Below, in pieces: positions 4,527 to 52,704 of a stretch of 64,000 nucleotides of DNA; positions within the stretch are counted from its first letter, which is position 1, and every line of letters begins with the position of its first letter. Made by a program: the position numbers and the translations under genes. A model generated the notes under the pieces. That model saw nothing but the letters and a program-made list of their open reading frames with translations, searched no databases and was not told the DNA's origin. Location: positions 3,872,001-3,936,000 of the forward strand of contig OZ220089.1 of assembly GCA_964291625.2 (NCBI GenBank), in the 5' to 3' direction. Source of the stretch: Candidatus Latescibacterota bacterium. Its GTDB lineage: Bacteria > Latescibacterota > UBA2968 > UBA8231.

Positions 4527-5550
4527 GGGGGAGCGCCGCTTCGGCGCCGGCAAGCTGCCCGCGACGGTTCTGGATGAACTGCTGACTCGCTTTGCGGGGG
4601 GACCTGATCCTCGCCTCCTGGTGCCCCCCGGCGTCGGCGAGGACGCCGCCGTCGTCGACTTCGGCGACCGCTGCCTGGTGGCCAAGACCGATCCCATCAC
4701 CTTCGCCACCGACCGCATCGGCTGGTACGCCGTCCACGTCAACGCCAACGACATCGCCGCCATGGGGGCGGTGCCGAAGTGGTTCCTGGCCTCGGTGATC
4801 GTCCCCGAGGAGCTGGCCACCCGGGCCCTCTTCGAGCAGGTGATGGGGCAGATCCACCAGGCCTGCGGGGAGCTGGGCGTGACCGTGGCCGGCGGCCACA
4901 CGGAGGTCTCCTTCGGCATGGACCGGCCCCTCGTGGTGGGCCAGATGCTCGGCGAGGTGAGCCGCGGCGGCGTGGTCCGTTCCTCCGGCCTGCGGCCGGG
5001 GGACGCGCTGCTGCTGACCAAGGGGATGGCCATCGAGGCCACGGCGATCATCGCCGCCGAGAAGCGGGACGAGCTGCGGTCCCGCGGCTGGAGCGAGGCC
5101 GACCTGGACCGCTGCGCCGGCTACCTGGACGACCCCGGGATCAGCGTCGTCGCCGACGCCCGGACGGCGCTGGCGGCCGGGGGCGTCCACGCCCTGCACG
5201 ACCCCACCGAGGGCGGCGTGGCCACGGGGCTGGCGGAGATGGCCTGGGCCTCGGGTGCGGGGCTGGAGATCGACGGCGGGGCCCTGCCGGTCAGCGACGA
5301 GTCGCGGCGCCTGTGTGCGGAGTTCGGGCTGGACCCCTTCGGCGTGATCTCCTCGGGCGCCCTGCTCATCGGCTGCGATCCGGAGGCGGCCGCGGACGTG
5401 ATCTCCGCGCTCCAAGGGCAGGGCATCGCCTGCGCCCGCATCGGCACGGCGAGGGAGGCGGGATTCGGCCTGCGCCTGCGTCAGCCGGACGGCGCCCTCG
5501 TCGAGCTGCCCCGGTTCGAGGTCGACGAGATCACCCGGCTCTTCGCGTGA
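4510..5550 (+). CDS. AIR synthase-related (PurM/HypE/ThiL superfamily) ATP-dependent protein
   Basis: GKLP..GEDAAVVD, KTDPITF, VNANDIAAMG, GGHTE and LHDPTEGG. Overlaps the cobA-hemD stop. Confidence 0.85.
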   Translation: MAAGAEGERRFGAGKLPATVLDELLTRFAGGPDPRLLVPPGVGEDAAVVDFGDRCLVAKTDPITFATDRIGWYAVHVNANDIAAMGAVPKWFLASVIVPEELATRALFEQVMGQIHQACGELGVTVAGGHTEVSFGMDRPLVVGQMLGEVSRGGVVRSSGLRPGDALLLTKGMAIEATAIIAAEKRDELRSRGWSEADLDRCAGYLDDPGISVVADARTALAAGGVHALHDPTEGGVATGLAEMAWASGAGLEIDGGALPVSDESRRLCAEFGLDPFGVISSGALLIGCDPEAAADVISALQGQGIACARIGTAREAGFGLRLRQPDGALVELPRFEVDEITRLFA

Positions 5551-42913: not shown

Positions 42914-43092
42914 GGGGGGGCTCGCTCGGGGTGCGGGGTGCGGATCGGGGTCTTGCCGGGGCGGCATAGGTTCCGCGAGGCCGGGGGCAGCGTCAAGGGC
43001 GAGGAAGCCCTGGCCGATGGCGAAGCGATTGATCCCGGCTCCGGGGCGGCGGTACCTTGCCGAGGCTGGAAGTCGACTCGAGGAGGCACCCG

Positions 43093-44499
43093 ATGAGACC
43101 GATCCCGACATGGCCGGCCGCCGCGGCCGGCCTCGCGCTGCTCACCCCTGGCGAAGGGCAGGCCCAGGTGACCGGATTCGACCGCGAGGCCCTGATCGCG
43201 GAGTTCATCGCTTTCGACGACTCGCGCAACGAGGGACGGGCGTACTCGGACCAGACGACATCGTCGGCCCTGGCCTGGGGCGAGAGCTACTACCTCAACG
43301 CCTACATCAAGATGTACCGCGTCATCGGGGACGCGCGCTGGCTGGACAAGGTCGTCGACCACTTCGACCGCATGGCGGCGAACATGGGCGACCACGACGG
43401 CGACGGCATCCCGGGGTGGCAGGCGGACCGGTACTCCGTCTCCCGCATGCGCGCCGGGGAACTGCACAACCGCGGGACGGCGAGGATCCTGCCCGGGGCG
43501 AAGGTGGAGACGAACATCCAGCAGGCCCACGAAGCGGTGGACGCGGAGTACATCGTCGAGCGCACCGGGGACGACCGCTACACGGTGAGGCAGAGGAGCG
43601 GCGGCCCGTGGGAAGTGGTCCACGACGGGCCCCACGCCGTGGGAGAGCCGATCCCCGGCATCGCCGGCTTCGAGGTGAAGCTGGAGGGCGTGCCCGAGAT
43701 CGGGGACCGCTTCCGCGTCGAGACCTGGGGACCGGCGCCGCTGGAGTACGCCGTGCACGAGGGGATGATCCTCTACCCCGTCGCCCAGTTCATCGAGCTG
43801 GCCCTGAAGGACCCGCGCCTCAAGGGGCGTTACGAGGAGAAGGCCCGGTCCTACCTCCAACTGATCGAGGAGCGGGTCCTGCGGAAGCAGGAGCGCCACT
43901 GGGTGGACGTGGGCCCCGGCATGGGGGCCTACCGGTTCACCGAGTCCCCGGCCGAGCGCTTTCCCAACCGCGTCATGCCCCACAACCAGTACCTCGCCCC
44001 GGCCCGGGTCTGGCTGGTGCTCAAGGACGTCTCGGAGAATCCTCTGTACCTGGAGCGCGCCACGAAGATGGCCGCCCACTTCCGGCACTTCCTCCAAGAG
44101 ACGGGAGATGCCTGGACCTGGAACTACTGGGACTGGACCGAGGCCGGGGAGCCGGACCACAGCCGCCCCGAGGACAGCAGCCACGGGCAGATCGACGTGA
44201 CCTTCGCCGTCGAGGCCTTCCGCCGGGGCGTGGTCTTCACGCGGGAGGACATGCTGCGGTTCGCGCGGACCCTGACGGACCAGATGTGGAACGGCTCGCT
44301 GGAGGAACCGCGCATCGGGGGCCGCGTGGACGGACCCGACGGCGACAGCAAGATCATCCGCGGCTGGATCGAGCTGTGCCGCTGGGACCCGCGGATCTGG
44401 GAGATCCAGTGGGCCCGGTTCAACCGGCTCGAGCGGCCGGGGCTGGACATCCCCCACATTCTGTACGGGCGGGCGCTGCTCGACGGCGAGGTGGAGTAG
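43093..44499 (+). CDS. Exported hypothetical protein, possibly an alpha/alpha-toroid carbohydrate-active fold
   Basis: AGGAGG RBS, signal peptide, LAWGESYY, PHNQ, WNYW and EDSSH. Confidence 0.7.
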   Translation: MRPIPTWPAAAAGLALLTPGEGQAQVTGFDREALIAEFIAFDDSRNEGRAYSDQTTSSALAWGESYYLNAYIKMYRVIGDARWLDKVVDHFDRMAANMGDHDGDGIPGWQADRYSVSRMRAGELHNRGTARILPGAKVETNIQQAHEAVDAEYIVERTGDDRYTVRQRSGGPWEVVHDGPHAVGEPIPGIAGFEVKLEGVPEIGDRFRVETWGPAPLEYAVHEGMILYPVAQFIELALKDPRLKGRYEEKARSYLQLIEERVLRKQERHWVDVGPGMGAYRFTESPAERFPNRVMPHNQYLAPARVWLVLKDVSENPLYLERATKMAAHFRHFLQETGDAWTWNYWDWTEAGEPDHSRPEDSSHGQIDVTFAVEAFRRGVVFTREDMLRFARTLTDQMWNGSLEEPRIGGRVDGPDGDSKIIRGWIELCRWDPRIWEIQWARFNRLERPGLDIPHILYGRALLDGEVE

Positions 44500-44576
44500 C
44501 GGCCTGCACCGCGCCGGCTGCTCCGCCACCCACTCGCCGTGTCCCCGGCGGCCACAGTCGGGAGGGCCCTCCAGCC

Positions 44577-44605
44577 TTGACGCGGCGGGAGAGCCTCAGC
44601 ATAAT
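44577..44605 (+). promoter_or_regulatory. Sigma70-type promoter
   Basis: TTGACG (44577-82), 17-bp spacer, CATAAT (44600-05). A perfect palindrome ggagggccctcc lies at 44561-44572 just upstream. Confidence 0.75.
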
Positions 44606-44611
44606 CCGGCC

Positions 44612-44829
44612 GGCTCGCAGGGAGCCTCCAGTCCGCGGGAAGGGCCCAGCCCACCTGTGCACCGCAGCACGCAGCGCCCGCCTAGCACCTCCTTTCAGCC
44701 CCGGATGCGGACCGTGGGCCTTCCTTCGAGAGGAGGCTGCACCTTGTTCCGCCCAATCACCCCCATCGCCGTCCCGAACCATCCCGCAGTTGCCCGTAGT
44801 CCGTCGGTCCGCGGCCGGGGAGGTGCGTG
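44612..44829 (+). ncRNA. Candidate structured cis-regulatory leader RNA
   Basis: Complementary pairs ggctc/gagcc, agcctcc/ggaggct, gtccgc/gcggac and ggaag(g)gccca/tgggccttcc, plus gcacctcc complementary to the downstream SD ggaggtgc. Confidence 0.5.
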
Positions 44830-44830
44830 A
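44744..44830 (+). CDS. Putative 28-aa leader peptide (uORF)
   Basis: AGGAGG 7 nt before TTG. Reads MFRPITPIAVPNHPAVARSPSVRGRGGA, and its TGA overlaps the ankyrin ATG (TGATG). Confidence 0.4.
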   Translation: MFRPITPIAVPNHPAVARSPSVRGRGGA

Positions 44831-46065
44831 TGCCGGTCCGCCATCTTCCCAACGATCCCGACCTGGACCACCTCAGGGGCCAGGCGAAGTCGCTCCTCGC
44901 CGCCTGCCGGTCCGGCGACCCCGACGCCGTGGCCGACTTCGCCGAGTTCCATCCCCGCGGGGTGGAGCCCGCCGAGGCGAAGCTCGCCGACGCCCAGCTC
45001 GTGCTCGCGAGGGCCTACCAGCAGTCGAGCTGGCCCCGCCTGCGGGTCAAGGTGGAGCTGCTGCGCGCCATCTGGAACGACGACGTGCAGCGGGTCCGCG
45101 ACATCGTGACCGAGCACCCCGACCTGCTGGCAGAGAACGTGCGCAACGAGGACTGGGGCCCGCCCATGTCGCAGGCCGCCAACCTCGGCCGGGACGCGGT
45201 CGTGGAGGCCCTGGCCTCCCTCGGCGCGCAGGACCTCGAGAAGGCCTTCGCCCGCGCGGCCCTGCAGGGCAAGGTGAGCACCATGCGCAAGCTGGTTGCT
45301 CTCGGCGCGACGGTCCCGCGGGGGATCATCATGGGCTGCTGCGAGACGGTGAACGGCGACGGCCTGAGGGAGCTGGTCGAGGTCGGCGCCGAGCTGTGCG
45401 ACTCCGAGGGCGACCGCCTGGCGCCCGTCGCCCTGGCCCTGAGCACCTACTCCCGCAACCCCGCCGGCAAGCACGAGGTCCTGCGCATCCTGGAGGCCAA
45501 CGTCGACTACCCCGACACGCCCGCCATGGCCGTGCACCGGGGGCGGGTCGACCTGCTCGAGGCCCTGTACGAGCGGGACCCCGGCTTCGTCGGCCGTCCG
45601 CTTACCGGCGAGGAGACCTACCCCCGGGCGTGCGGCTGCGGCGGAGACGACGGCTACGGCCTGCACGGCACCCCGCTGCAGGGCGCCACCCTGCTGCACA
45701 TGGCGATCGACTACCACGAGCGCGAGATCTTCGACTGGCTCCTGGACCACGGCGCCGACCCGAACGCCCGCGCGGCGGTCGACGCCGACGGCTTCGGCGG
45801 GCACACGCCGTTGTTCAGCGCCGTGGTGGTGCAGCCGGCGACGGTGAGAGGCCTGGAGGCCGATCACTTCGCCCGGGCCCTGCTCGAGCGCGGCGCCGAC
45901 CCTTCCGTGCGCGCCTCGATCCGCAAGCAGCTGATGTTCATCGACGACGAGGAGCACGAGTACCGCGAGGTGACGGCCCTGGAGTACGGGCGGGCCTTCC
46001 ACGAGCTGCGGTTCGTCAACATGGCGGCCCTGAACCTGCTGCAGGCGCACGTCGAGGCCGGCTGA
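44830..46065 (+). CDS. Ankyrin-repeat protein with N-terminal 'LPxxPDLDHLRxQAK..AQLVLAR.Y...SW' helical domain
   Basis: GATLLHMAI, LLDHGADPNA, GHTPLFSAV and LLERGADP. Confidence 0.88.
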   Translation: MPVRHLPNDPDLDHLRGQAKSLLAACRSGDPDAVADFAEFHPRGVEPAEAKLADAQLVLARAYQQSSWPRLRVKVELLRAIWNDDVQRVRDIVTEHPDLLAENVRNEDWGPPMSQAANLGRDAVVEALASLGAQDLEKAFARAALQGKVSTMRKLVALGATVPRGIIMGCCETVNGDGLRELVEVGAELCDSEGDRLAPVALALSTYSRNPAGKHEVLRILEANVDYPDTPAMAVHRGRVDLLEALYERDPGFVGRPLTGEETYPRACGCGGDDGYGLHGTPLQGATLLHMAIDYHEREIFDWLLDHGADPNARAAVDADGFGGHTPLFSAVVVQPATVRGLEADHFARALLERGADPSVRASIRKQLMFIDDEEHEYREVTALEYGRAFHELRFVNMAALNLLQAHVEAG

Positions 46066-46067
46066 AG

Positions 46068-47765
46068 TTGACCCACCAGCGAACCATCTACTCCGGGGAT
46101 CGGACCGGCCATCGGATCCTCCTCGCCGGTCTGAGCTTCCTGGTCCCGGTGTTCCCCCTTTCGGCGCTGCCGCCGTGCGGGGAGCCGGGCACGATCAGCA
46201 CCGTGACCGCCCCCGACGGCGGCGACTACATCGCCGCCTTCAGTGACTACAAGGTCTACCCCCCGGTAGAGGGGGGCTTTGGAGGTGCAGATGGCCCCGT
46301 CGATCTGGTCGCGGCGCCGGAGTACCGCAGTCACCATCCGCGGCACTTGGCCGTCGGTCCCCGAGGCCGCGTCCATATCGCCGACTGGACGATCATCTAC
46401 CGCCTCGAAGCCGATGGCAGCGCCACCCGCCTCGTCGGCGTACCGCAGTATCGTGACATCGGAACCGGCATCGGCAACGGCCATTACGAGCGGCCGCCCC
46501 TGCTGCAGGAATTCAATGTCCTGGAGGACTCCGTGGCGGCCCAGGTCGCCCGTATTGCGCCGGGTGCGATGGCCTTCGACCAGCAGGGGCGGCTCTACTT
46601 CGTCGACTATGTCGATGCGTGGCAGATCTTCTTGCACAGCAGCGACTACTCGAAGATAGTGGCGCGCATCGCTCGCGTGGAGCCCGATGGGCGGGTGGTC
46701 ACCTTCGCCGGCCCGGCGGCGTTCGGTGGCATTGGTTCGCTGGTCTTCGATGTCCAGGGGGATCTGCTGTTGTCGGGCTATGGAGGGATCTGGCGCATCG
46801 ACGACCAGGGAGGTGTCTCCGGCCCCATGGGGCCACCTGGGCGAGGATCCCTGCAGATGGATGATCAGGGGAGACTGTACTTCAGGACGCGTATCCAGGT
46901 CTTCCGCCGCCATGCCGACGGCACGATCGAGCACGTGGCGGGGTCGGCCTGGGAGGACGAAAAGGCCATGCGCGAGGCGGCGCTGGAAGGGGAGTGGTCG
47001 GAGGAGCGCCCGGGCGGGTACTATGTCGCCAATGGCGGGCCAGCGACCGAGGCTCCGATTCACTATGTCTCCGGCCTGGCCCTCGACTCGGACGGGTCGC
47101 TGTATGTGGCCAATGCCTACTTCCACCGCATCCATCGCGTCCGTCCCGACGGCGTCATTGAGACCGTCGCCGGCAACGGCCGGGACTTCATGAGCTCACC
47201 CGGTTGTGGGGCGCGCGAAAAGCGAGTGGCCGGGGGCATACCCATTCCCCGATGCCTGGACCATATCGGCGACGGCGGGCCGGCGGTGGAGGCCCCGGTC
47301 TGGGATCCACTTCTGCTGCAGATGACGCCGGACGGCGATCTCCTGGTGGCGATGGGGAAGGGAGGATTCATGTGGCTCGGGGGCGACATCTCCCACCTGC
47401 GCCGCATCTGCCGGGTCCGCGAGTGGATGACGGCCACGGCGGTGGACGCGGTCGAGGAGCAGGTGCCTGCGAGTGGCGCCGAAGGAGCGCTACCCTCCGT
47501 GCGGCTGTACCCGAATCCCTCCAACGCCGCCGTCACGATCGCCTTCGAGTTGGACCGCACGGCGTCCGTATCGGTGCGGGTCTACGACGAGCTGGGGCAG
47601 CGGGTGCGGGTGCTGGCCGCGGAGGCCGAGCGCCCGGCGGGCTCCTACCAGTTCGTCTGGGACGGGCTCGACCAGGCGGGGTGGGTGCAGGCCTCCGGCA
47701 CCTACTTTCTGGTGGTCTCGGTCGATGGGACTACGGAGAGCCACAAGCTGACCCTGCTGCACTGA
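46068..47765 (+). CDS. Secreted NHL-like beta-propeller protein with FlgD-Ig CTD, array copy 1
   Basis: 3' part of ORF 42879-47765. Probable TTG start 2 nt after the ankyrin stop. LAVGPRGRVHIAD, LALDSDGSLYVAN, IETVAGNG, GDGGPAVEA and YPNP..WDGLD..ASGTY. Confidence 0.8.
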   Translation: MTHQRTIYSGDRTGHRILLAGLSFLVPVFPLSALPPCGEPGTISTVTAPDGGDYIAAFSDYKVYPPVEGGFGGADGPVDLVAAPEYRSHHPRHLAVGPRGRVHIADWTIIYRLEADGSATRLVGVPQYRDIGTGIGNGHYERPPLLQEFNVLEDSVAAQVARIAPGAMAFDQQGRLYFVDYVDAWQIFLHSSDYSKIVARIARVEPDGRVVTFAGPAAFGGIGSLVFDVQGDLLLSGYGGIWRIDDQGGVSGPMGPPGRGSLQMDDQGRLYFRTRIQVFRRHADGTIEHVAGSAWEDEKAMREAALEGEWSEERPGGYYVANGGPATEAPIHYVSGLALDSDGSLYVANAYFHRIHRVRPDGVIETVAGNGRDFMSSPGCGAREKRVAGGIPIPRCLDHIGDGGPAVEAPVWDPLLLQMTPDGDLLVAMGKGGFMWLGGDISHLRRICRVREWMTATAVDAVEEQVPASGAEGALPSVRLYPNPSNAAVTIAFELDRTASVSVRVYDELGQRVRVLAAEAERPAGSYQFVWDGLDQAGWVQASGTYFLVVSVDGTTESHKLTLLH

Positions 47766-47778
47766 GGGACGGAAGGAC

Positions 47779-49422
47779 ATGCCAACCCGGCTTCATGGCC
47801 TCCTCTTCCTGTCGTGGCTTGCCCTGGCGGCCCCAGTGGGGGCGCTGCCGCCGTGCGGTGAGCCGGGCACGATCAGCACCGTGACCGCTCCCGACGGCGG
47901 GGACTACATCGCCGCCTTCAGTGGCTACAAAGTCTACCCGCCGCAGGACGTACCCGGCTACGGGGACCGGGCCGCCGCGCCGGAGTACCGCAGTCGCTAT
48001 CCGCAATACCTGGCCGTCGGTCCCCGAGGGCGCGTCCATGTCGCCGACTGGACGATCATCTACCGTTTGGAGGCCGATGGCAGCGCTACCCGCATCGTCG
48101 GTGTCCCTCAGTATTGGGCCGATGACACCGGCATAGGCAGCGACGGGCCCTACCCACCCTCTCTGCAGAAGGTGAATGTCCTCGTGGACACGGCGGCGGC
48201 GCTGGAGGCCCGCATCGCGCCGGGGGCAATGGCCTTCGACCGGCAGGGGCGGCTCCACTTCGTCGACTATGTCGATGCGTGGCAGGCGACCAGGGTTGAA
48301 GGCCCGCCGGGCGTGTCACGCATTGCACGCGTGGAGACCGATGGTCGGGTCGTCACCTTCGCCGGTCCGGCGGCGTTCGGTTGGGCAAGCTCGCTGGTCT
48401 TCGATCTGGAGGGACATCTGCTGTTGTCGGGTCACGGAGGGATCTGGCGCATTGACGACCAGGGAGGTGTCTCCGGCCCCATGGGGCCACCTGGACAAGG
48501 AGCTCTGCAAGTGGATGACCAGGGGAGACTGTATTTCCGGGCGGGTGACCAGGTCTTCCGCCGCAATGCCGACGGCACGATCGAGCACCTCGCCGGATCG
48601 GTCTGGGACAACTGGAGGGCCATGCGTGAGGCGGCGTTGGAAGGGGAGTGGTCGGAGGAGCGCCCGGGCGGGTACTATGTCGCCAATGGCGGGCCGGCGA
48701 CCGAGGCTCTCTTCGACTTTGTGTCGGCCCTGGCTCTCGACTCGGACGGGTCCCTGTACGTGGCCAATTACAACTTCCACCGCATCCATCGGGTCCGCCC
48801 CGACGGTGTCATCGAGACGGTCGCCGGCAACGGCCTGGACTGGCACTGGTCCCCCGGCTGTGCGGCGTCCGAAAAGCGGGTGGCCGGGGGCATACCCATT
48901 CCCAGATGCCTGGACAATATCGGCGACGGCGGTCCGGCGCGGGAGGCCCCGGTCTGGGAGCCCTCTCAACTGCAGATGACGCCGGACGGGGATCTATTGG
49001 TAGGCATGTGGCCGGCGGGGGGCATGTTGTGGGCGGGTGGCGACTTCTCCCACCTGCGCCGCATCTGCCGGGTTCGCGAGTGGATGGTGGCCACGGGGGT
49101 GGAGGCGGTCGAGGAGGAAGTGCCGGCAAGTGGCGCTGAAGAAGCGCTACCCTCCTTGCGCCTGTGGCCGAATCCCTTCAATGCCGCCGTTACGGTCGCC
49201 TTCGAGCTGGACCGCACGGCGTCAGTGTCCGTGCGGGTCTACGACGAGTTGGGGCAGCGGGTACGGGTGCTGGCCGCCGAGGCCGAGCGCCCGGCGGGCG
49301 CCTACCAGTTCGTCTGGGACGGGCTCGACCAGGCGGGGCGGGTGCAGGCCTCGGGCACCTACTTCCTGGTGGTCTCGGTCGATGGGACGGCTGAGAGCCA
49401 CAAGCTGACGTTGCTGCACTGA
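47779..49422 (+). CDS. Secreted NHL-like beta-propeller protein with FlgD-Ig CTD, array copy 2
   Basis: Paralog of copy 1, with signal peptide and WPNPFN..WDGLD. Confidence 0.88.
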   Translation: MPTRLHGLLFLSWLALAAPVGALPPCGEPGTISTVTAPDGGDYIAAFSGYKVYPPQDVPGYGDRAAAPEYRSRYPQYLAVGPRGRVHVADWTIIYRLEADGSATRIVGVPQYWADDTGIGSDGPYPPSLQKVNVLVDTAAALEARIAPGAMAFDRQGRLHFVDYVDAWQATRVEGPPGVSRIARVETDGRVVTFAGPAAFGWASSLVFDLEGHLLLSGHGGIWRIDDQGGVSGPMGPPGQGALQVDDQGRLYFRAGDQVFRRNADGTIEHLAGSVWDNWRAMREAALEGEWSEERPGGYYVANGGPATEALFDFVSALALDSDGSLYVANYNFHRIHRVRPDGVIETVAGNGLDWHWSPGCAASEKRVAGGIPIPRCLDNIGDGGPAREAPVWEPSQLQMTPDGDLLVGMWPAGGMLWAGGDFSHLRRICRVREWMVATGVEAVEEEVPASGAEEALPSLRLWPNPFNAAVTVAFELDRTASVSVRVYDELGQRVRVLAAEAERPAGAYQFVWDGLDQAGRVQASGTYFLVVSVDGTAESHKLTLLH

Positions 49423-49433
49423 GGAGTAGGGTT

Positions 49434-51026
49434 GTGGCACTTCGTCTCCATGGCTTGCTCTCCCTGTCGTGGCTTGCCTTGGCGGTCCCGGTGGGGGCAC
49501 TCCCGCCGTGCGGCCCAGCGGGGACCATCACCACCGTGACCGCCCCGGACGGCGGCGACTACATCGCCGTCTTCCGCGACTACACGATCTACCCGCCCGA
49601 GCGGGTCAACGTCGGAGGCGGCCGGGACCTGGTGGCCGCGCCGGAGTACCGCAGCTACTATCCGCAGTATCTGGCCCTGGGGCCCCAAGGGCGCGTCCAC
49701 GTGGCCGACCACACGATCATCTATCGTCTCGAAGCCGACGGCAGCGCCACCCGCCTTGTCGGCGTGCCCCAGTACTCGGCGGAGGAAGACAACGTGCACC
49801 AGGCCGCTGTGGCTCCGCTGCTGCAGCAGACGAACGTCCTGCAGGATACCGTGGCGGCCCTGGACGCGCGCATTGCGCCCGGGCCGATGGCGTTCGACCG
49901 GGAAGGCCGTCTCTACTTCGTTGACTATGTCAGAGGAGGGCGGAGGAAGGAGGCCCGCATCGCGCGTCTCGAAGCCGACGGACAGGTGACCACCTTTGCC
50001 GCCCGGGTCGAGTCTGCCCCCCACACTTCGCTGCTCTTCGAGCCCGGGGGGGATCTGCTCGTCGCCGGGTGGGGAGGCGTACAACGAATCGATGCGCAAG
50101 GGGGCATATCCAGGCTGCTGGAGGAGCGTCTGGTAGGGGCCTTGAGGCTGGGTCCTCAAGGGAGACTGTACTTCACCAACGGTCAACAGGTTTACCGCCG
50201 TCTCGACGACGGCACCCTCGAGGTTGTCGCCGGCTATGACTGGGGCGACCCGGACAACCCGGACCACAGGGGCGTCATCTATCGGGCGGGGGTGACAGGA
50301 CGCGGGGAGGAGCCTCGCCTTGGAGGGGTTTATGTGGGCAATGGCAGGCCGGCGACCGAGGCGCCTCTCCTTCGGGCCTTTGATTTCGTGATCGATGCCC
50401 GGGGGGTGATGTACATCGCCAACCGGGGATTCGACCGCATCCACCGCGTGGGCATCGACGGCGTCCTCGAGACGATCGCCGGTGATGGGACGCTCTGGGT
50501 CCTGGGCTGTACCAGGCACACTTGCCGAGACGAGATGGGCGATGGCCGTCCAGCCTTGGACGCCCCGATCCCGCTGCCGCTGCATGTTCTTCTCACGTCG
50601 CAGAACGATCTCCTCGTGCCGATGAGCCCGCCGGGGGCCTTCTGGGTGGGAGGGGTCTTTTCCTTCCTGCGCCGCATCTGCGGCGTCGGCGACCTCGTGC
50701 CGACGGCCGTGGCGGCGGTCGAGGAGGAGGTGCCGACTCCAGGAGGGACACCCTCCTCCGTACGCCTGTGGCCGAATCCCTTCAATGCCTCTGTCACCGT
50801 CGCCTTCGAGTTGGACCACCCAGCCTCCGTCTCGGTGCAGGTCTACGACGAGTTGGGGCAGCGGGTGCGGGTGCTGGCCGCCGAGGCCGAGCGCCCGGCG
50901 GGGTCCTACCAGTTCGTCTGGGACGGGCTCGACCAGGCGGGGCGGGTGCAGGCCTCGGGCATCTACTTTCTGGTCGTCTCAGTCGATGGGACTACGGAGA
51001 GCCACAAGCTGACCCTGCTGCACTGA
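49434..51026 (+). CDS. Secreted NHL-like beta-propeller protein with FlgD-Ig CTD, array copy 3
   Basis: Most divergent paralog, with the same N-terminal LPPCG..APDGGDYIA and C-terminal domain. Confidence 0.88.
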   Translation: MALRLHGLLSLSWLALAVPVGALPPCGPAGTITTVTAPDGGDYIAVFRDYTIYPPERVNVGGGRDLVAAPEYRSYYPQYLALGPQGRVHVADHTIIYRLEADGSATRLVGVPQYSAEEDNVHQAAVAPLLQQTNVLQDTVAALDARIAPGPMAFDREGRLYFVDYVRGGRRKEARIARLEADGQVTTFAARVESAPHTSLLFEPGGDLLVAGWGGVQRIDAQGGISRLLEERLVGALRLGPQGRLYFTNGQQVYRRLDDGTLEVVAGYDWGDPDNPDHRGVIYRAGVTGRGEEPRLGGVYVGNGRPATEAPLLRAFDFVIDARGVMYIANRGFDRIHRVGIDGVLETIAGDGTLWVLGCTRHTCRDEMGDGRPALDAPIPLPLHVLLTSQNDLLVPMSPPGAFWVGGVFSFLRRICGVGDLVPTAVAAVEEEVPTPGGTPSSVRLWPNPFNASVTVAFELDHPASVSVQVYDELGQRVRVLAAEAERPAGSYQFVWDGLDQAGRVQASGIYFLVVSVDGTTESHKLTLLH

Positions 51027-51039
51027 GGGAAGGCAGGAC

Positions 51040-52704
51040 ATGCCAACCCGTCTCCACGGCCTCCTCGCATTGTGGTGCCTTGCCTTGGCGGGCAGGGTGG
51101 GGGCTCTGCCGCCGTGCGGGGAGCCGGGTACGATCAGCACCGTGACCGCTCCCGACGGCGGCGACTACATCGCCGCCTTCAGTGACTACAAGGTCTATCC
51201 TCCGGTAGAGGGGGGCTTCGGAGGTGCAGATGGCCCGGTCGACCTGGTCGCGGCGCCGGAGTACCACAGTCACCATCCGCGGCACTTGGCCGTCGGTCCC
51301 CGGGGCCGCGTCCATGTCGCCGACTGGACGATCATCTACCGCCTCGAAGCCGATGGCAGCGCCACCCGTCTCGTCGGCGTACCGCAGTATCGTGACATCG
51401 GAACCGGTATCGGCAACGGCAAATACGAGCGGCCACCCTTGTTGCAGGAATTCAATGTCCTTGAAGACACCGTGGCGGCCCAGGTCGCCCGGATTGCGCC
51501 GGGTGCGATGGCCTTCGACCGGCAGGGGCGCCTCTACTTCGTCGACTATGTCGATGCGTGGCAGATCTTCTTGCACAGGAGGGACTACTCGAAGATAGTG
51601 GCGCGCATCGCTCGCGTGGAGCCCGATGGGCGGGTGGTCACCTTCGCCGGCCCGGCGGCATTCGGTTACGTAGGTTCGCTGGTCTTCGATGTCCAGGGGG
51701 CTCTGCTGTTGTCGGGCTATGGAGGGATCTGGCGCATCGACGACCAGGGAGGTGTCTCCGGCCCCATGGGGCCACCTGGGCGAGGATCCCTGCAGATGGA
51801 TGACCAGGGGAGACTGTACTTCAGGACGCGTATCCAGGTCTTCCGCTGCCATGCCGACGGCACGATCGAGCACGTAGCGGGGTCGGCTTGGGAGGACGAA
51901 AAGGCCATGCGCGAGGCGGCGCTGGAAGGGGAGTGGTCGGAGGAGCGCCCGGGCGGGTACTATGTCGCCAATGGCGGGCCGGCGACCGAGGCTCCGATTC
52001 ACTATGTCTCCGGGCTGGCTCTCGACTCGGACGGGTCGCTGTATGTGGCCAATGCCTACTTCCACCGCATCCATCGGGTCCGTCCCGACGGCATCCTCGA
52101 GACCGTCGCCGGCAACGGCCGGGACTTCATGAGCTCACCCGGTTGTGGGGCGCGCGAAAAGCGAGTGGCCGGGGGCATACCCATTCCCCGATGCCTGGAC
52201 CATATCGGCGACGGCGGGCCGGCGGTGGAGGCCCCGGTCTGGGATCCACTTCTGCTGCAGATGACGCCGGACGGCGATCTCCTGGTGGCGATGGGGAAGG
52301 GAGGATTCATGTGGCTCGGGGGCGACATCTCCCACCTGCGCCGCATCTGCCGGGTCCGCGAGTGGATGACGGCCACGGCGGTGGAGGCGGTCGAGGAGCA
52401 GGTGCCTGCGAGTGGCGCCGAAGGAGCGCTACCCTCCGTGCGGCTGTACCCGAATCCCTCCAACGCCGCCGTCACGATCGCCTTCGAGTTGGACCGCACG
52501 GCGTCCGTATCGGTGCGGGTCTACGACGAGCTGGGGCAGCGGGTGCGGGTGCTGGCCGCGGAGGCCCGGCGCCCGGCGGGCTCCTACCAGTTCGTCTGGG
52601 ACGGGCTCGACCAGGCGGGGCGGTCGCAAGCCTCGGGCACCTACTTTCTGGTGGTCTCGGTCGATGGGACTACGGAGAGCCACAAGCTGACCCTGCTGCA
52701 CTGA
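51040..52704 (+). CDS. Secreted NHL-like beta-propeller protein with FlgD-Ig CTD, array copy 4
   Basis: Nearly identical to copy 1 over the mature protein. Confidence 0.88.
   Translation: MPTRLHGLLALWCLALAGRVGALPPCGEPGTISTVTAPDGGDYIAAFSDYKVYPPVEGGFGGADGPVDLVAAPEYHSHHPRHLAVGPRGRVHVADWTIIYRLEADGSATRLVGVPQYRDIGTGIGNGKYERPPLLQEFNVLEDTVAAQVARIAPGAMAFDRQGRLYFVDYVDAWQIFLHRRDYSKIVARIARVEPDGRVVTFAGPAAFGYVGSLVFDVQGALLLSGYGGIWRIDDQGGVSGPMGPPGRGSLQMDDQGRLYFRTRIQVFRCHADGTIEHVAGSAWEDEKAMREAALEGEWSEERPGGYYVANGGPATEAPIHYVSGLALDSDGSLYVANAYFHRIHRVRPDGILETVAGNGRDFMSSPGCGAREKRVAGGIPIPRCLDHIGDGGPAVEAPVWDPLLLQMTPDGDLLVAMGKGGFMWLGGDISHLRRICRVREWMTATAVEAVEEQVPASGAEGALPSVRLYPNPSNAAVTIAFELDRTASVSVRVYDELGQRVRVLAAEARRPAGSYQFVWDGLDQAGRSQASGTYFLVVSVDGTTESHKLTLLH

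Follow-up and report, generated by a model that had tools for sequence, protein, structure and literature searches.

Translational OFF riboswitches of the SAM-II, SAM-V, preQ1-II/III and guanidine-III classes have the Shine-Dalgarno (SD) sequence as part of a pseudoknotted aptamer. The ZTP (pfl) riboswitch consists of two sub-domains that are connected by a variable linker and locked by a long-range pairing, and orphan motifs such as yjdF and raiA are tied to single gene families. The L20 and S15 leaders, on the other hand, are bound by the product of their own gene; the S6:S18 leader of rpsF is a further example of a ribosomal-protein autoregulatory leader (PMC3895269). The DNA considered here is a stretch of 64,000 nucleotides (nt), referred to as the window, from the genome of a Candidatus Latescibacterota bacterium (assembly GCA_964291625.2, contig OZ220089.1, positions 3,872,001 to 3,936,000, forward strand). 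Segment 44609-44746 of the window is one copy of a new and widespread family of leader RNAs of ~125-135 nt, which precede genes for proteins with a common N-terminal domain. That this is a real, conserved structured leader is as good as certain.

As in SAM-II, SAM-V, preQ1-II/III and guanidine-III, pseudoknot and SD are combined in one fold, which would act on translation and has no terminator. Unlike RNAs of the SAM-II/preQ1-II type, the new leader is larger (with six helices, two long-range pairings among them) and is tied to a protein domain instead of a pathway. With ZTP (pfl) it shares two sub-domains, a linker of variable length and a long-range pairing lock, but it bears no relation to ZTP in consensus or helices and is not matched by the Rfam models. 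Its near-exclusive link to one class of downstream gene is reminiscent of yjdF and raiA; in this case, however, the link is to an N-terminal domain that is common to proteins with unrelated C-termini. The likeness to the ribosomal-protein leaders lies in a conserved leader placed before one protein family in many phyla, with its start region occluded; the difference is that the product is non-ribosomal and has no recognisable RNA-binding fold, and that there are up to 16 paralogous leader-gene pairs per genome.

A blastn comparison with 40 related genomes yields one orthologous leader, 93% identical across window 44564-44830. Ten genomes also have, at 17 places in all, matches of only ~44 nt to window 44613-44656 (E ≤ 4.2e-5). 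Twenty-seven such places, retrieved and lined up, have in common a ~125-nt leader with a promoter-like site a few bases upstream of its beginning and a start codon at its end. A MAFFT alignment of 26 full copies (A1; the partial copies L015 and L019 were excluded) was the basis of a covariance model (R1) with 132 positions and 25 nested pairs. The model matches the plus strand of the window at 44609-44746 over model positions 1-132 with 88.5 bits (E 4e-21), and its second-best match in the window reaches only 7.6 bits. The window's genome holds a second copy (61 bits; G000:C1:1478111-1478236, minus strand, locus L037), for which the covariance model was needed: blastn against the same genome returned the window copy only. 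The L037 copy directly precedes an open reading frame (ORF) of 242 residues with the same N-terminal domain followed by Clp_N repeats.

R1 matches are present in 32 of 61 close genomes and in 59 of 151 genomes sampled from the window's phylum (E ≤ 1e-5), at up to 16 copies per genome. Beyond these, a pattern scan with one genome per species gave at least 119 stretches, 80 of which were made into loci; R1 finds 58 full-length matches (47.6-111 bits) in 56 of these 80 and is weak in two more. By record titles and taxonomy, the matching loci come from Latescibacterota plus eight other phyla, among the matches listed. These are Gemmatimonadota, Planctomycetota, Verrucomicrobiota (Opitutales), Poribacteria, Armatimonadota (Fimbriimonadales), Chloroflexota (Dehalococcoidia), Actinomycetota (Kutzneria, Actinoplanes, Streptosporangiaceae, Acidimicrobiia) and Alphaproteobacteria (Methylocystis, Methylosinus, Roseomonas, Roseococcus, Geminicoccus and others).

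The structure has been evaluated on 78 model-aligned copies (77 of them distinct). Hairpin P1 (44612-44626, plus strand, as for all elements of the leader) opens the fold, with GGCUC (44612-16) pairing with GAGCC (44622-26) across the loop GCAGG (44617-21). When loop length is left free, at least four of the five pairs form in 74 of the 77 copies and all five in 38, compared with 37% and 4% for shuffled upstream sequence. (In the model-fitted alignment P1 is only 71.4% paired, because the model mis-registers loops of differing length.) Variants among copies include GCGC/GCGC, GCGU/ACGC and CUUC/GAAG. The 3' part of the P1 loop (44617-21) pairs in turn with the bases that directly follow P2 (CCUGU, 44654-58), forming the pseudoknot PK-A (alignment columns 9-15/53-57), which is 82.0% paired, with four of five pairs changed on both sides. 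PK-A occurs as AGG/CCU and GGG/CCC, and as UCG/CGA in Alphaproteobacteria.

P1 is followed by the junction UCCA (44627-44630), whose C44628 and C44629 are nearly invariant (C in 75 of 77 copies each) and probably pair with G44637 and G44638: this CC/GG mini-helix is 99.4% paired, has one U-A compensatory change, and is also predicted by RNAalifold. The next segment, GUCCGC (44631-36), is the 5' strand of P3; its partner GCGGAC (44707-12) lies inside the loop of P4. P3 is 99.8% paired and almost invariant, and one of its six pairs is changed on both sides (CG to UA, in three copies). A second junction, GGGAA (44637-44641; consensus GGnAA), has G in 76 of 77 copies at each of its first two positions and A in 71 and 77 copies at its last two. 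Outside the six main helices, conservation of at least 90% is confined to C44628, C44629, G44637, G44638, A44640 and A44641. The short hairpin P2 (44642-44652; GGGC 44642-45 with GCCC 44649-52, loop CCA) is 99.7% paired, with three of four pairs changed on both sides.

A variable linker (44659-44684), which differs in length among copies and contains a local hairpin in the window's minimum-free-energy fold, connects this part with the long P5-P4 hairpin. The 5' strand of P5 is the pyrimidine-rich anti-SD GCACCUCCUUUC (44685-44696), and it pairs with 44728-44740, which consists of the Shine-Dalgarno sequence GAGAGGAGG plus CUGC and is located 7 nt upstream of a TTG codon at 44744. P5 is 91.4% paired, all ten of its pairs are changed on both sides, and the window's minimum-free-energy fold includes it. 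Within it, P4 (GCCCC 44698-44702 with GUGGGC 44714-44719) is 98.2% paired with five of five pairs changed on both sides; its variants include GCCUG/CAGGC, GCCCG/CGGGC and GUCUG/CAGAC. The strand order P3(5')-P4(5')-P3(3')-P4(3') is that of a pseudoknot or a kissing loop. P3 is probably a kissing-loop contact, because the CC/GG helix closes a loop around its 5' strand.

Over the full structure, 90.5% of cells are paired in the 77 distinct copies as against 80.1% after column shuffling (none of 500 shuffles reaches the observed value), and 302 cells are changed on both sides as against 67.7; the copies are akin and not independent, so these and the other shuffle controls overstate significance, but the double changes nonetheless recur across phyla. 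When partners are slid by 1-3 columns, only 42-53% of cells are paired. A structure-blind alignment (MAFFT only, 26 copies) gives the same picture: 84.6% paired versus 79.0% shuffled and 66 double changes versus 26.3, with none of 500 shuffles reaching either value, and with P3 99.4% paired and three of its six pairs changed on both sides. PK-A and P3 lie outside the model's own structure, which means that neither can have guided the alignment. From the model-fitted alignment (A2) RNAalifold predicts P2, P4, P5 and the CC/GG helix, with 17 of 19 pairs changed on both sides. Thus all six helices covary, including the two long-range pairings P3 and PK-A, and what is generally expected of a riboswitch, a conserved structured fold with covariation support, is found here.

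A preliminary description of this locus, prepared without database searches, had proposed a structured leader; the covariation in six helices bears this out. The strings that it quoted are all where it placed them, and three of its five pairings are conserved, among them the 5' hairpin GGCTC/GAGCC, which is P1, and GTCCGC/GCGGAC, which is P3; both are conserved and covary. PK-A is a pairing beyond those it named. Its interleaved (A-B-A'-B') pseudoknot was right in kind and in the GTCCGC/GCGGAC strands, but the B strands are in fact those of P4: the pairing it had put there, GGAAGGGCCCA (44638-48) with TGGGCCTTCC (44715-24), is no more frequent among copies than in shuffles (47.9% versus 48.8%). 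The same is true of AGCCTCC (44623-29) with GGAGGCT (44732-38), which had been thought capable of occluding the SD of the upstream open reading frame (uORF) that starts at 44744 (58.2% versus 58.3%). Pairing of GCACCTCC (44685-92) with GGAGGTGC (44819-26), the SD of the ankyrin gene, identified one strand correctly: 44685-92 is the anti-SD, but its partner in the family is the proximal uORF SD at 44728-36, not the ankyrin SD.

The SD embedded in P5 sits 5-9 nt ahead of the start codon across copies. Overlap with the SD or a terminator, a general feature of riboswitch expression platforms, is thus found here for the SD. Since the SD is the P5 3' strand, the fully folded RNA would block initiation, and the leader very probably acts on translation through SD sequestration. 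An alternative pairing that might constitute the ON state, of the anti-SD with GGnAAGGG, is indistinguishable from generic purine/pyrimidine complementarity: it is 82.6% paired versus 81.2% in shuffles and 76-88% when slid. In principle, sequestration of the SD in P5 needs no ligand, and minimum-free-energy folds of single copies already contain P4-P5. This would be compatible with a leader that has no effector and serves as a constitutive throttle, or responds to temperature, to the availability of ribosomes or helicases, or to mRNA decay or localisation. A simple attenuator, however, requires neither six covarying helices nor a kissing helix and junctions that are invariant across phyla, and we regard control of this kind as unlikely.

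The 5' end of the RNA can be placed tentatively with the help of a predicted sigma-70-like promoter at 44577-44605 (plus strand; -35 TTGACG, 44577-82; -10 CATAAT, 44600-05; 17-nt spacer). Its hexamers agree with consensus at 10 of 12 positions. The site, already named as a promoter in the preliminary description, is the sole sigma-70-like one within 43000-48000, where 0.3 are expected. The predicted transcription start, at ~44611-13, is at the foot of P1. In 43 of 77 copies a site of the form TTGnnn-N16-18-nAnnnT has its end 0-8 nt upstream of the first model position, as against 59 of 1540 random windows from the same loci. Promoter position is thus conserved among copies, and the RNA most likely begins at P1. 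In the scan of 43000-48000 no terminator-like site is found, nor is a processing site seen.

The leader directly precedes genes with a common N-terminal four-helix domain of ~80 residues. A profile of this N-domain (A4; the N-terminal ~85 residues of 45 sequences) matches within 450 nt downstream in 69 of the 78 copies; three of the nine copies without a match are cut at contig ends and the rest appear to be frameshifted or deleted. Leaders of genes encoding LPxxPxLxxLxxQAK, when collected as the preliminary description had suggested, share the RNA, with conserved and covarying stems. Comparison of RNA and domain coordinates in the 15 genomes that hold either shows that 54 of 55 RNA matches are followed on the same strand, at a distance of 0-400 nt, by a domain match, and that the RNA accompanies 54 of the 59 domain matches. 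RNA and domain are equally numerous in the window's genome (two each), in G001 (12 each), in Kutzneria (G155; two each), Methylocystis (G156; one each), Opitutales (G157; two each) and Fimbriimonadales (G159; five each), and G059 has four RNAs and four genes. G044 has 16 RNAs and 17 genes, and the Dehalococcoidia genome G158 has four RNAs and five full plus two partial domains. One RNA and one domain are found in G007, at different places: there the RNA lies ahead of a gene from which the domain is deleted. In a sample of 41 genomes from the order of Kutzneria, RNA (eight copies) and domain (eight copies) are found side by side in the same six, and the other 35 have neither. This is the arrangement of an autoregulatory leader, which lies upstream of, and co-occurs with, the gene of its candidate binding protein.

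Two loci depart from the simple arrangement. The G007 ortholog of the window's ankyrin gene has no leader recognisable by R1, and only 44 nt separate its ATG from the end of a transposase-like ORF; this locus (L188, G007:C1:2654600-2656900, positions 560-1100) can be regarded as a natural leader-less allele. In the Dehalococcoidia genome, G158:C1:3472979-3488935 has five N-domain matches in 16 kb, of which two have a leader, one is full-length without a leader, and two comprise the second half only.

Almost invariable linkage in cis to one domain might also suggest that the leader is the RNA subunit of a ribonucleoprotein with the N-domain and that any effect on translation is secondary. Retrons and type III toxin-antitoxin pairs likewise have an RNA encoded next to its protein, and the resemblance extends to the present case. 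SD and start codon are, however, inside the conserved fold, and there is no sign of a processing site or a terminator, which makes this interpretation very unlikely.

The consensus of the N-domain runs LPxRPNLExLKKQAKxLL ... LxxAQxVIAREYGFxSW. No Pfam or NCBIfam family covers it, ESM Atlas returns only 'hypothetical protein' clusters (best score 0.88), and PADLOC gives generic ankyrin and AAA+ matches only. AlphaFold2 models the domain as four helices (predicted local distance difference test score, pLDDT, 87.6). It is basic, with a median isoelectric point (pI) of 9.5, whereas the whole proteins are acidic (median pI 5.6). Against 1.84 billion representative proteins, the profile has 10,534 matches at E ≤ 0.001 and 5,684 at E ≤ 1e-10, each match being a cluster representative at 50% identity. 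Its position is the extreme N-terminus, within the first 20 residues, in 147 of the best 150 matches. Many of the best matches have two or three matched stretches, and the domain may be repeated or internally duplicated in some proteins.

What follows the N-domain varies. In the 59 proteins scanned, the C-termini are ankyrin (21), FliG_C (12), DUF1835 (11), Clp_N (3), sigma-54 AAA+ (Sigma54_activat; 2), FliM (1) and Glyoxalase_8 (1). Proteins that combine the N-domain with two FliG_C and a MotA-like segment are soluble and are encoded by tandem gene pairs with a leader for each gene (L092, copies 2761-2895 and 4528-4660; G001:C73; G014:C8; G044:C95; G005:C60); a FliM-like partner also occurs elsewhere. 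In two unrelated copies (L148:3480-3540 and L072:3597-3650) an in-frame TAA occupies the codon preceding the conserved LP, a position at which relatives have CAA (Gln). Apart from this the frames are open, and these genes may be pseudogenes or subject to stop-codon read-through.

The mechanism that we favour is product feedback. Transcription would start at the foot of P1, and the RNA folds into P1, PK-A, P2, the long P5-P4 hairpin and the six-pair P3, in which GUCCGC in the small CC/GG-closed loop meets GCGGAC in the P4 loop. The folded RNA would block translation initiation, constituting a translational OFF switch, and some factor would presumably stabilise or open the fold. In the favoured scheme this factor is the basic N-domain encoded right behind the leader, which would bind the invariant core and lock P5, so that all N-domain genes would share one homeostatic control. 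The N-domain is preferred as effector because of the near one-to-one linkage of the RNA to a basic domain at the extreme N-terminus, whatever follows it; the assignment is tentative, a little short of an even chance.

Several observations weigh against this scheme. Folding energy does not set the leader apart: 44612-44840 has a z-score of +0.53 (143 of 200 shuffles are at least as stable) and 44612-44746 one of -0.22, and values of -0.2 to -2.0 are likewise no better than shuffles, contrary to what the preliminary description had led one to expect. This would agree with chance complementarity in a GC-rich intergenic region, folding energy being no better than that of dinucleotide shuffles. The z-scores are uninformative, however, because the RNA is GC-rich and pseudoknots are ignored, and chance is refuted by the 58 matches of at least 47.6 bits in 56 of 80 loci of other genomes and by covariation in all six helices; its probability is next to nil. 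As regards the transcript, contigs of a close relative in an RNA-library run (X10) correspond to 44464-44663, 44837-45232 and 45256-45750, with 44666-44813 uncovered. The first of these crosses the promoter and, if it is RNA, would imply read-through from the upstream gene; contigs of this kind cannot reveal start, strand or level, the library may include DNA, and they are evidence neither way. The N-domain has no recognisable RNA-binding fold: Foldseek against the PDB yields no match at E ≤ 0.001, and the best Z-score in a VIA wide structure search is 4.0. Up to 16 copies in one genome would all cross-react. Finally, the 5' core of the RNA is 78% identical in nucleotide sequence across the nine named phyla, compared with 39% amino-acid identity for the N-domain. 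Conservation of the core beyond that of the domain is more readily explained by an invariant small ligand or a universal partner than by co-evolution with a protein.

This last comparison also speaks for a new class of small-molecule or ion riboswitch, in which the invariant core (P3 loop closed by CC/GG, GGnAA and PK-A) would be the binding site of the ligand; the ligand would stabilise P3 kissing and thereby P4-P5, hiding the SD. The N-domain proteins would then belong to the physiology of the ligand, for example as receptors with varied outputs, and the diverse C-terminal modules behind one N-domain do resemble a sensor-plus-output design. A double pseudoknot with near-invariant junction nucleotides, and an SD that forms part of the conserved fold, as it does in translational riboswitches such as SAM-II and preQ1-II, are in keeping with such an RNA. 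On the other hand, what the RNA is coupled to, nearly one-to-one, is a protein domain and not a pathway; genes for transport or biosynthesis are seen downstream of none of the copies; and no ligand can be proposed. We consider a riboswitch of this kind quite possible and not far behind product feedback, though improbable on balance. A more specific version, in which leader and N-domain are two readers of one signal (a ligand common to a new class of riboswitch and to a new, very large family of sensor domains), is doubtful.

In the window itself, product feedback on the leader would operate through an additional element. The TTG at 44744, which aligns with the start codon of other copies, begins a uORF of 28 codons (44744-44830, plus strand), the TGA stop of which (44828-30) overlaps the ankyrin ATG (44830-32) as TGATG. 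This uORF is present in only two of the 78 aligned copies, those of the window (L036) and of a named record (L100), and also in L009 of the relative G002, which is outside the 78. The two uORF peptides have two differences in 28 residues, as against one silent change, and for this reason the peptide itself is probably not the point. A second SD, GGGGAGGUGC (44817-44826, plus strand), precedes the ankyrin ATG; it is complementary to the anti-SD at 44685-92, occurs in the window's lineage only, and pairs with the anti-SD in the minimum-free-energy fold of 229 nt. Before close relatives of the ankyrin gene (52-54% identical) the copies run right up to the ATG, which implies that the window's ~85-nt spacer is derived. 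In the window, then, the regulated start would be that of the uORF, and control would extend to the ankyrin gene in two ways: through translational coupling, and because both SDs would compete for the one anti-SD.

The leader region (44500-44829) is intergenic and lies between an ORF of 480 residues at 43057-44499, in which no Pfam family is found at E ≤ 0.01, and the ankyrin ORF (44830-46065, plus strand). The latter encodes a 411-residue protein, with the N-terminal four-helix domain at residues ~5-85 followed by ankyrin repeats (Pfam Ank). Downstream, at 46068-52704, are four tandem paralogs of ~530-565 residues, 10-14 nt apart, with NHL/Teneurin-NHL repeats and a C-terminus of the FlgD_ig / Por_Secre_tail (type IX secretion system, T9SS) type. 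The first of these can start at TTG 46068, 2 nt past the ankyrin stop. Co-transcription of the ankyrin gene with the NHL paralog array is plausible, judging by the close spacing of the genes. Part of window 44000-46200 is contained in 22 runs from 13 studies; contigs 88-99% similar to it come from a sponge metagenome run (X4) and from a sponge metatranscriptome run (X10, referred to above).

The preliminary description had suspected that the leader is absent from Rfam, and this holds true for Rfam 15: at gathering scores there are no matches in the whole window and none in 12 loci of other lineages. At E ≤ 10, segment 44400-44950 returns only microRNA and L31-leader noise of 12.8-16.5 bits, and a Kutzneria copy has no family match; noise matches of this kind (microRNA, long non-coding RNA, L31-leader; 12.8-16.5 bits) compare with cut-offs of 33-105. 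In full-text searches of the literature no paper on the leader RNA or the N-domain was found, although an unpublished account or a supplementary listing is possible. The main texts of two papers on motif discovery, PMC11109978 and PMC5737381, have no occurrence of 'ankyrin', 'FliG' or 'Clp'; their motif-listing supplements might hold the leader.

The finding adds a large and deeply conserved class of structured RNA that is missing from Rfam 15, with clear covariation and a readable mechanism of SD sequestration, and with cultured carriers (Kutzneria, Methylocystis, Methylosinus, Roseomonas, Actinoplanes). Linkage to the leader is the first functional handle on the N-domain family, which comprises more than 10,000 clusters at 50% identity. 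Should leader and domain indeed read the same signal, an unrecognised signalling pathway would exist in at least nine phyla, its outputs being motor-like, ankyrin, Clp_N and AAA+ modules. The result would be new either way: an RNA-binding module that gates its own synthesis, or a riboswitch whose ligand would point to the function of these proteins.

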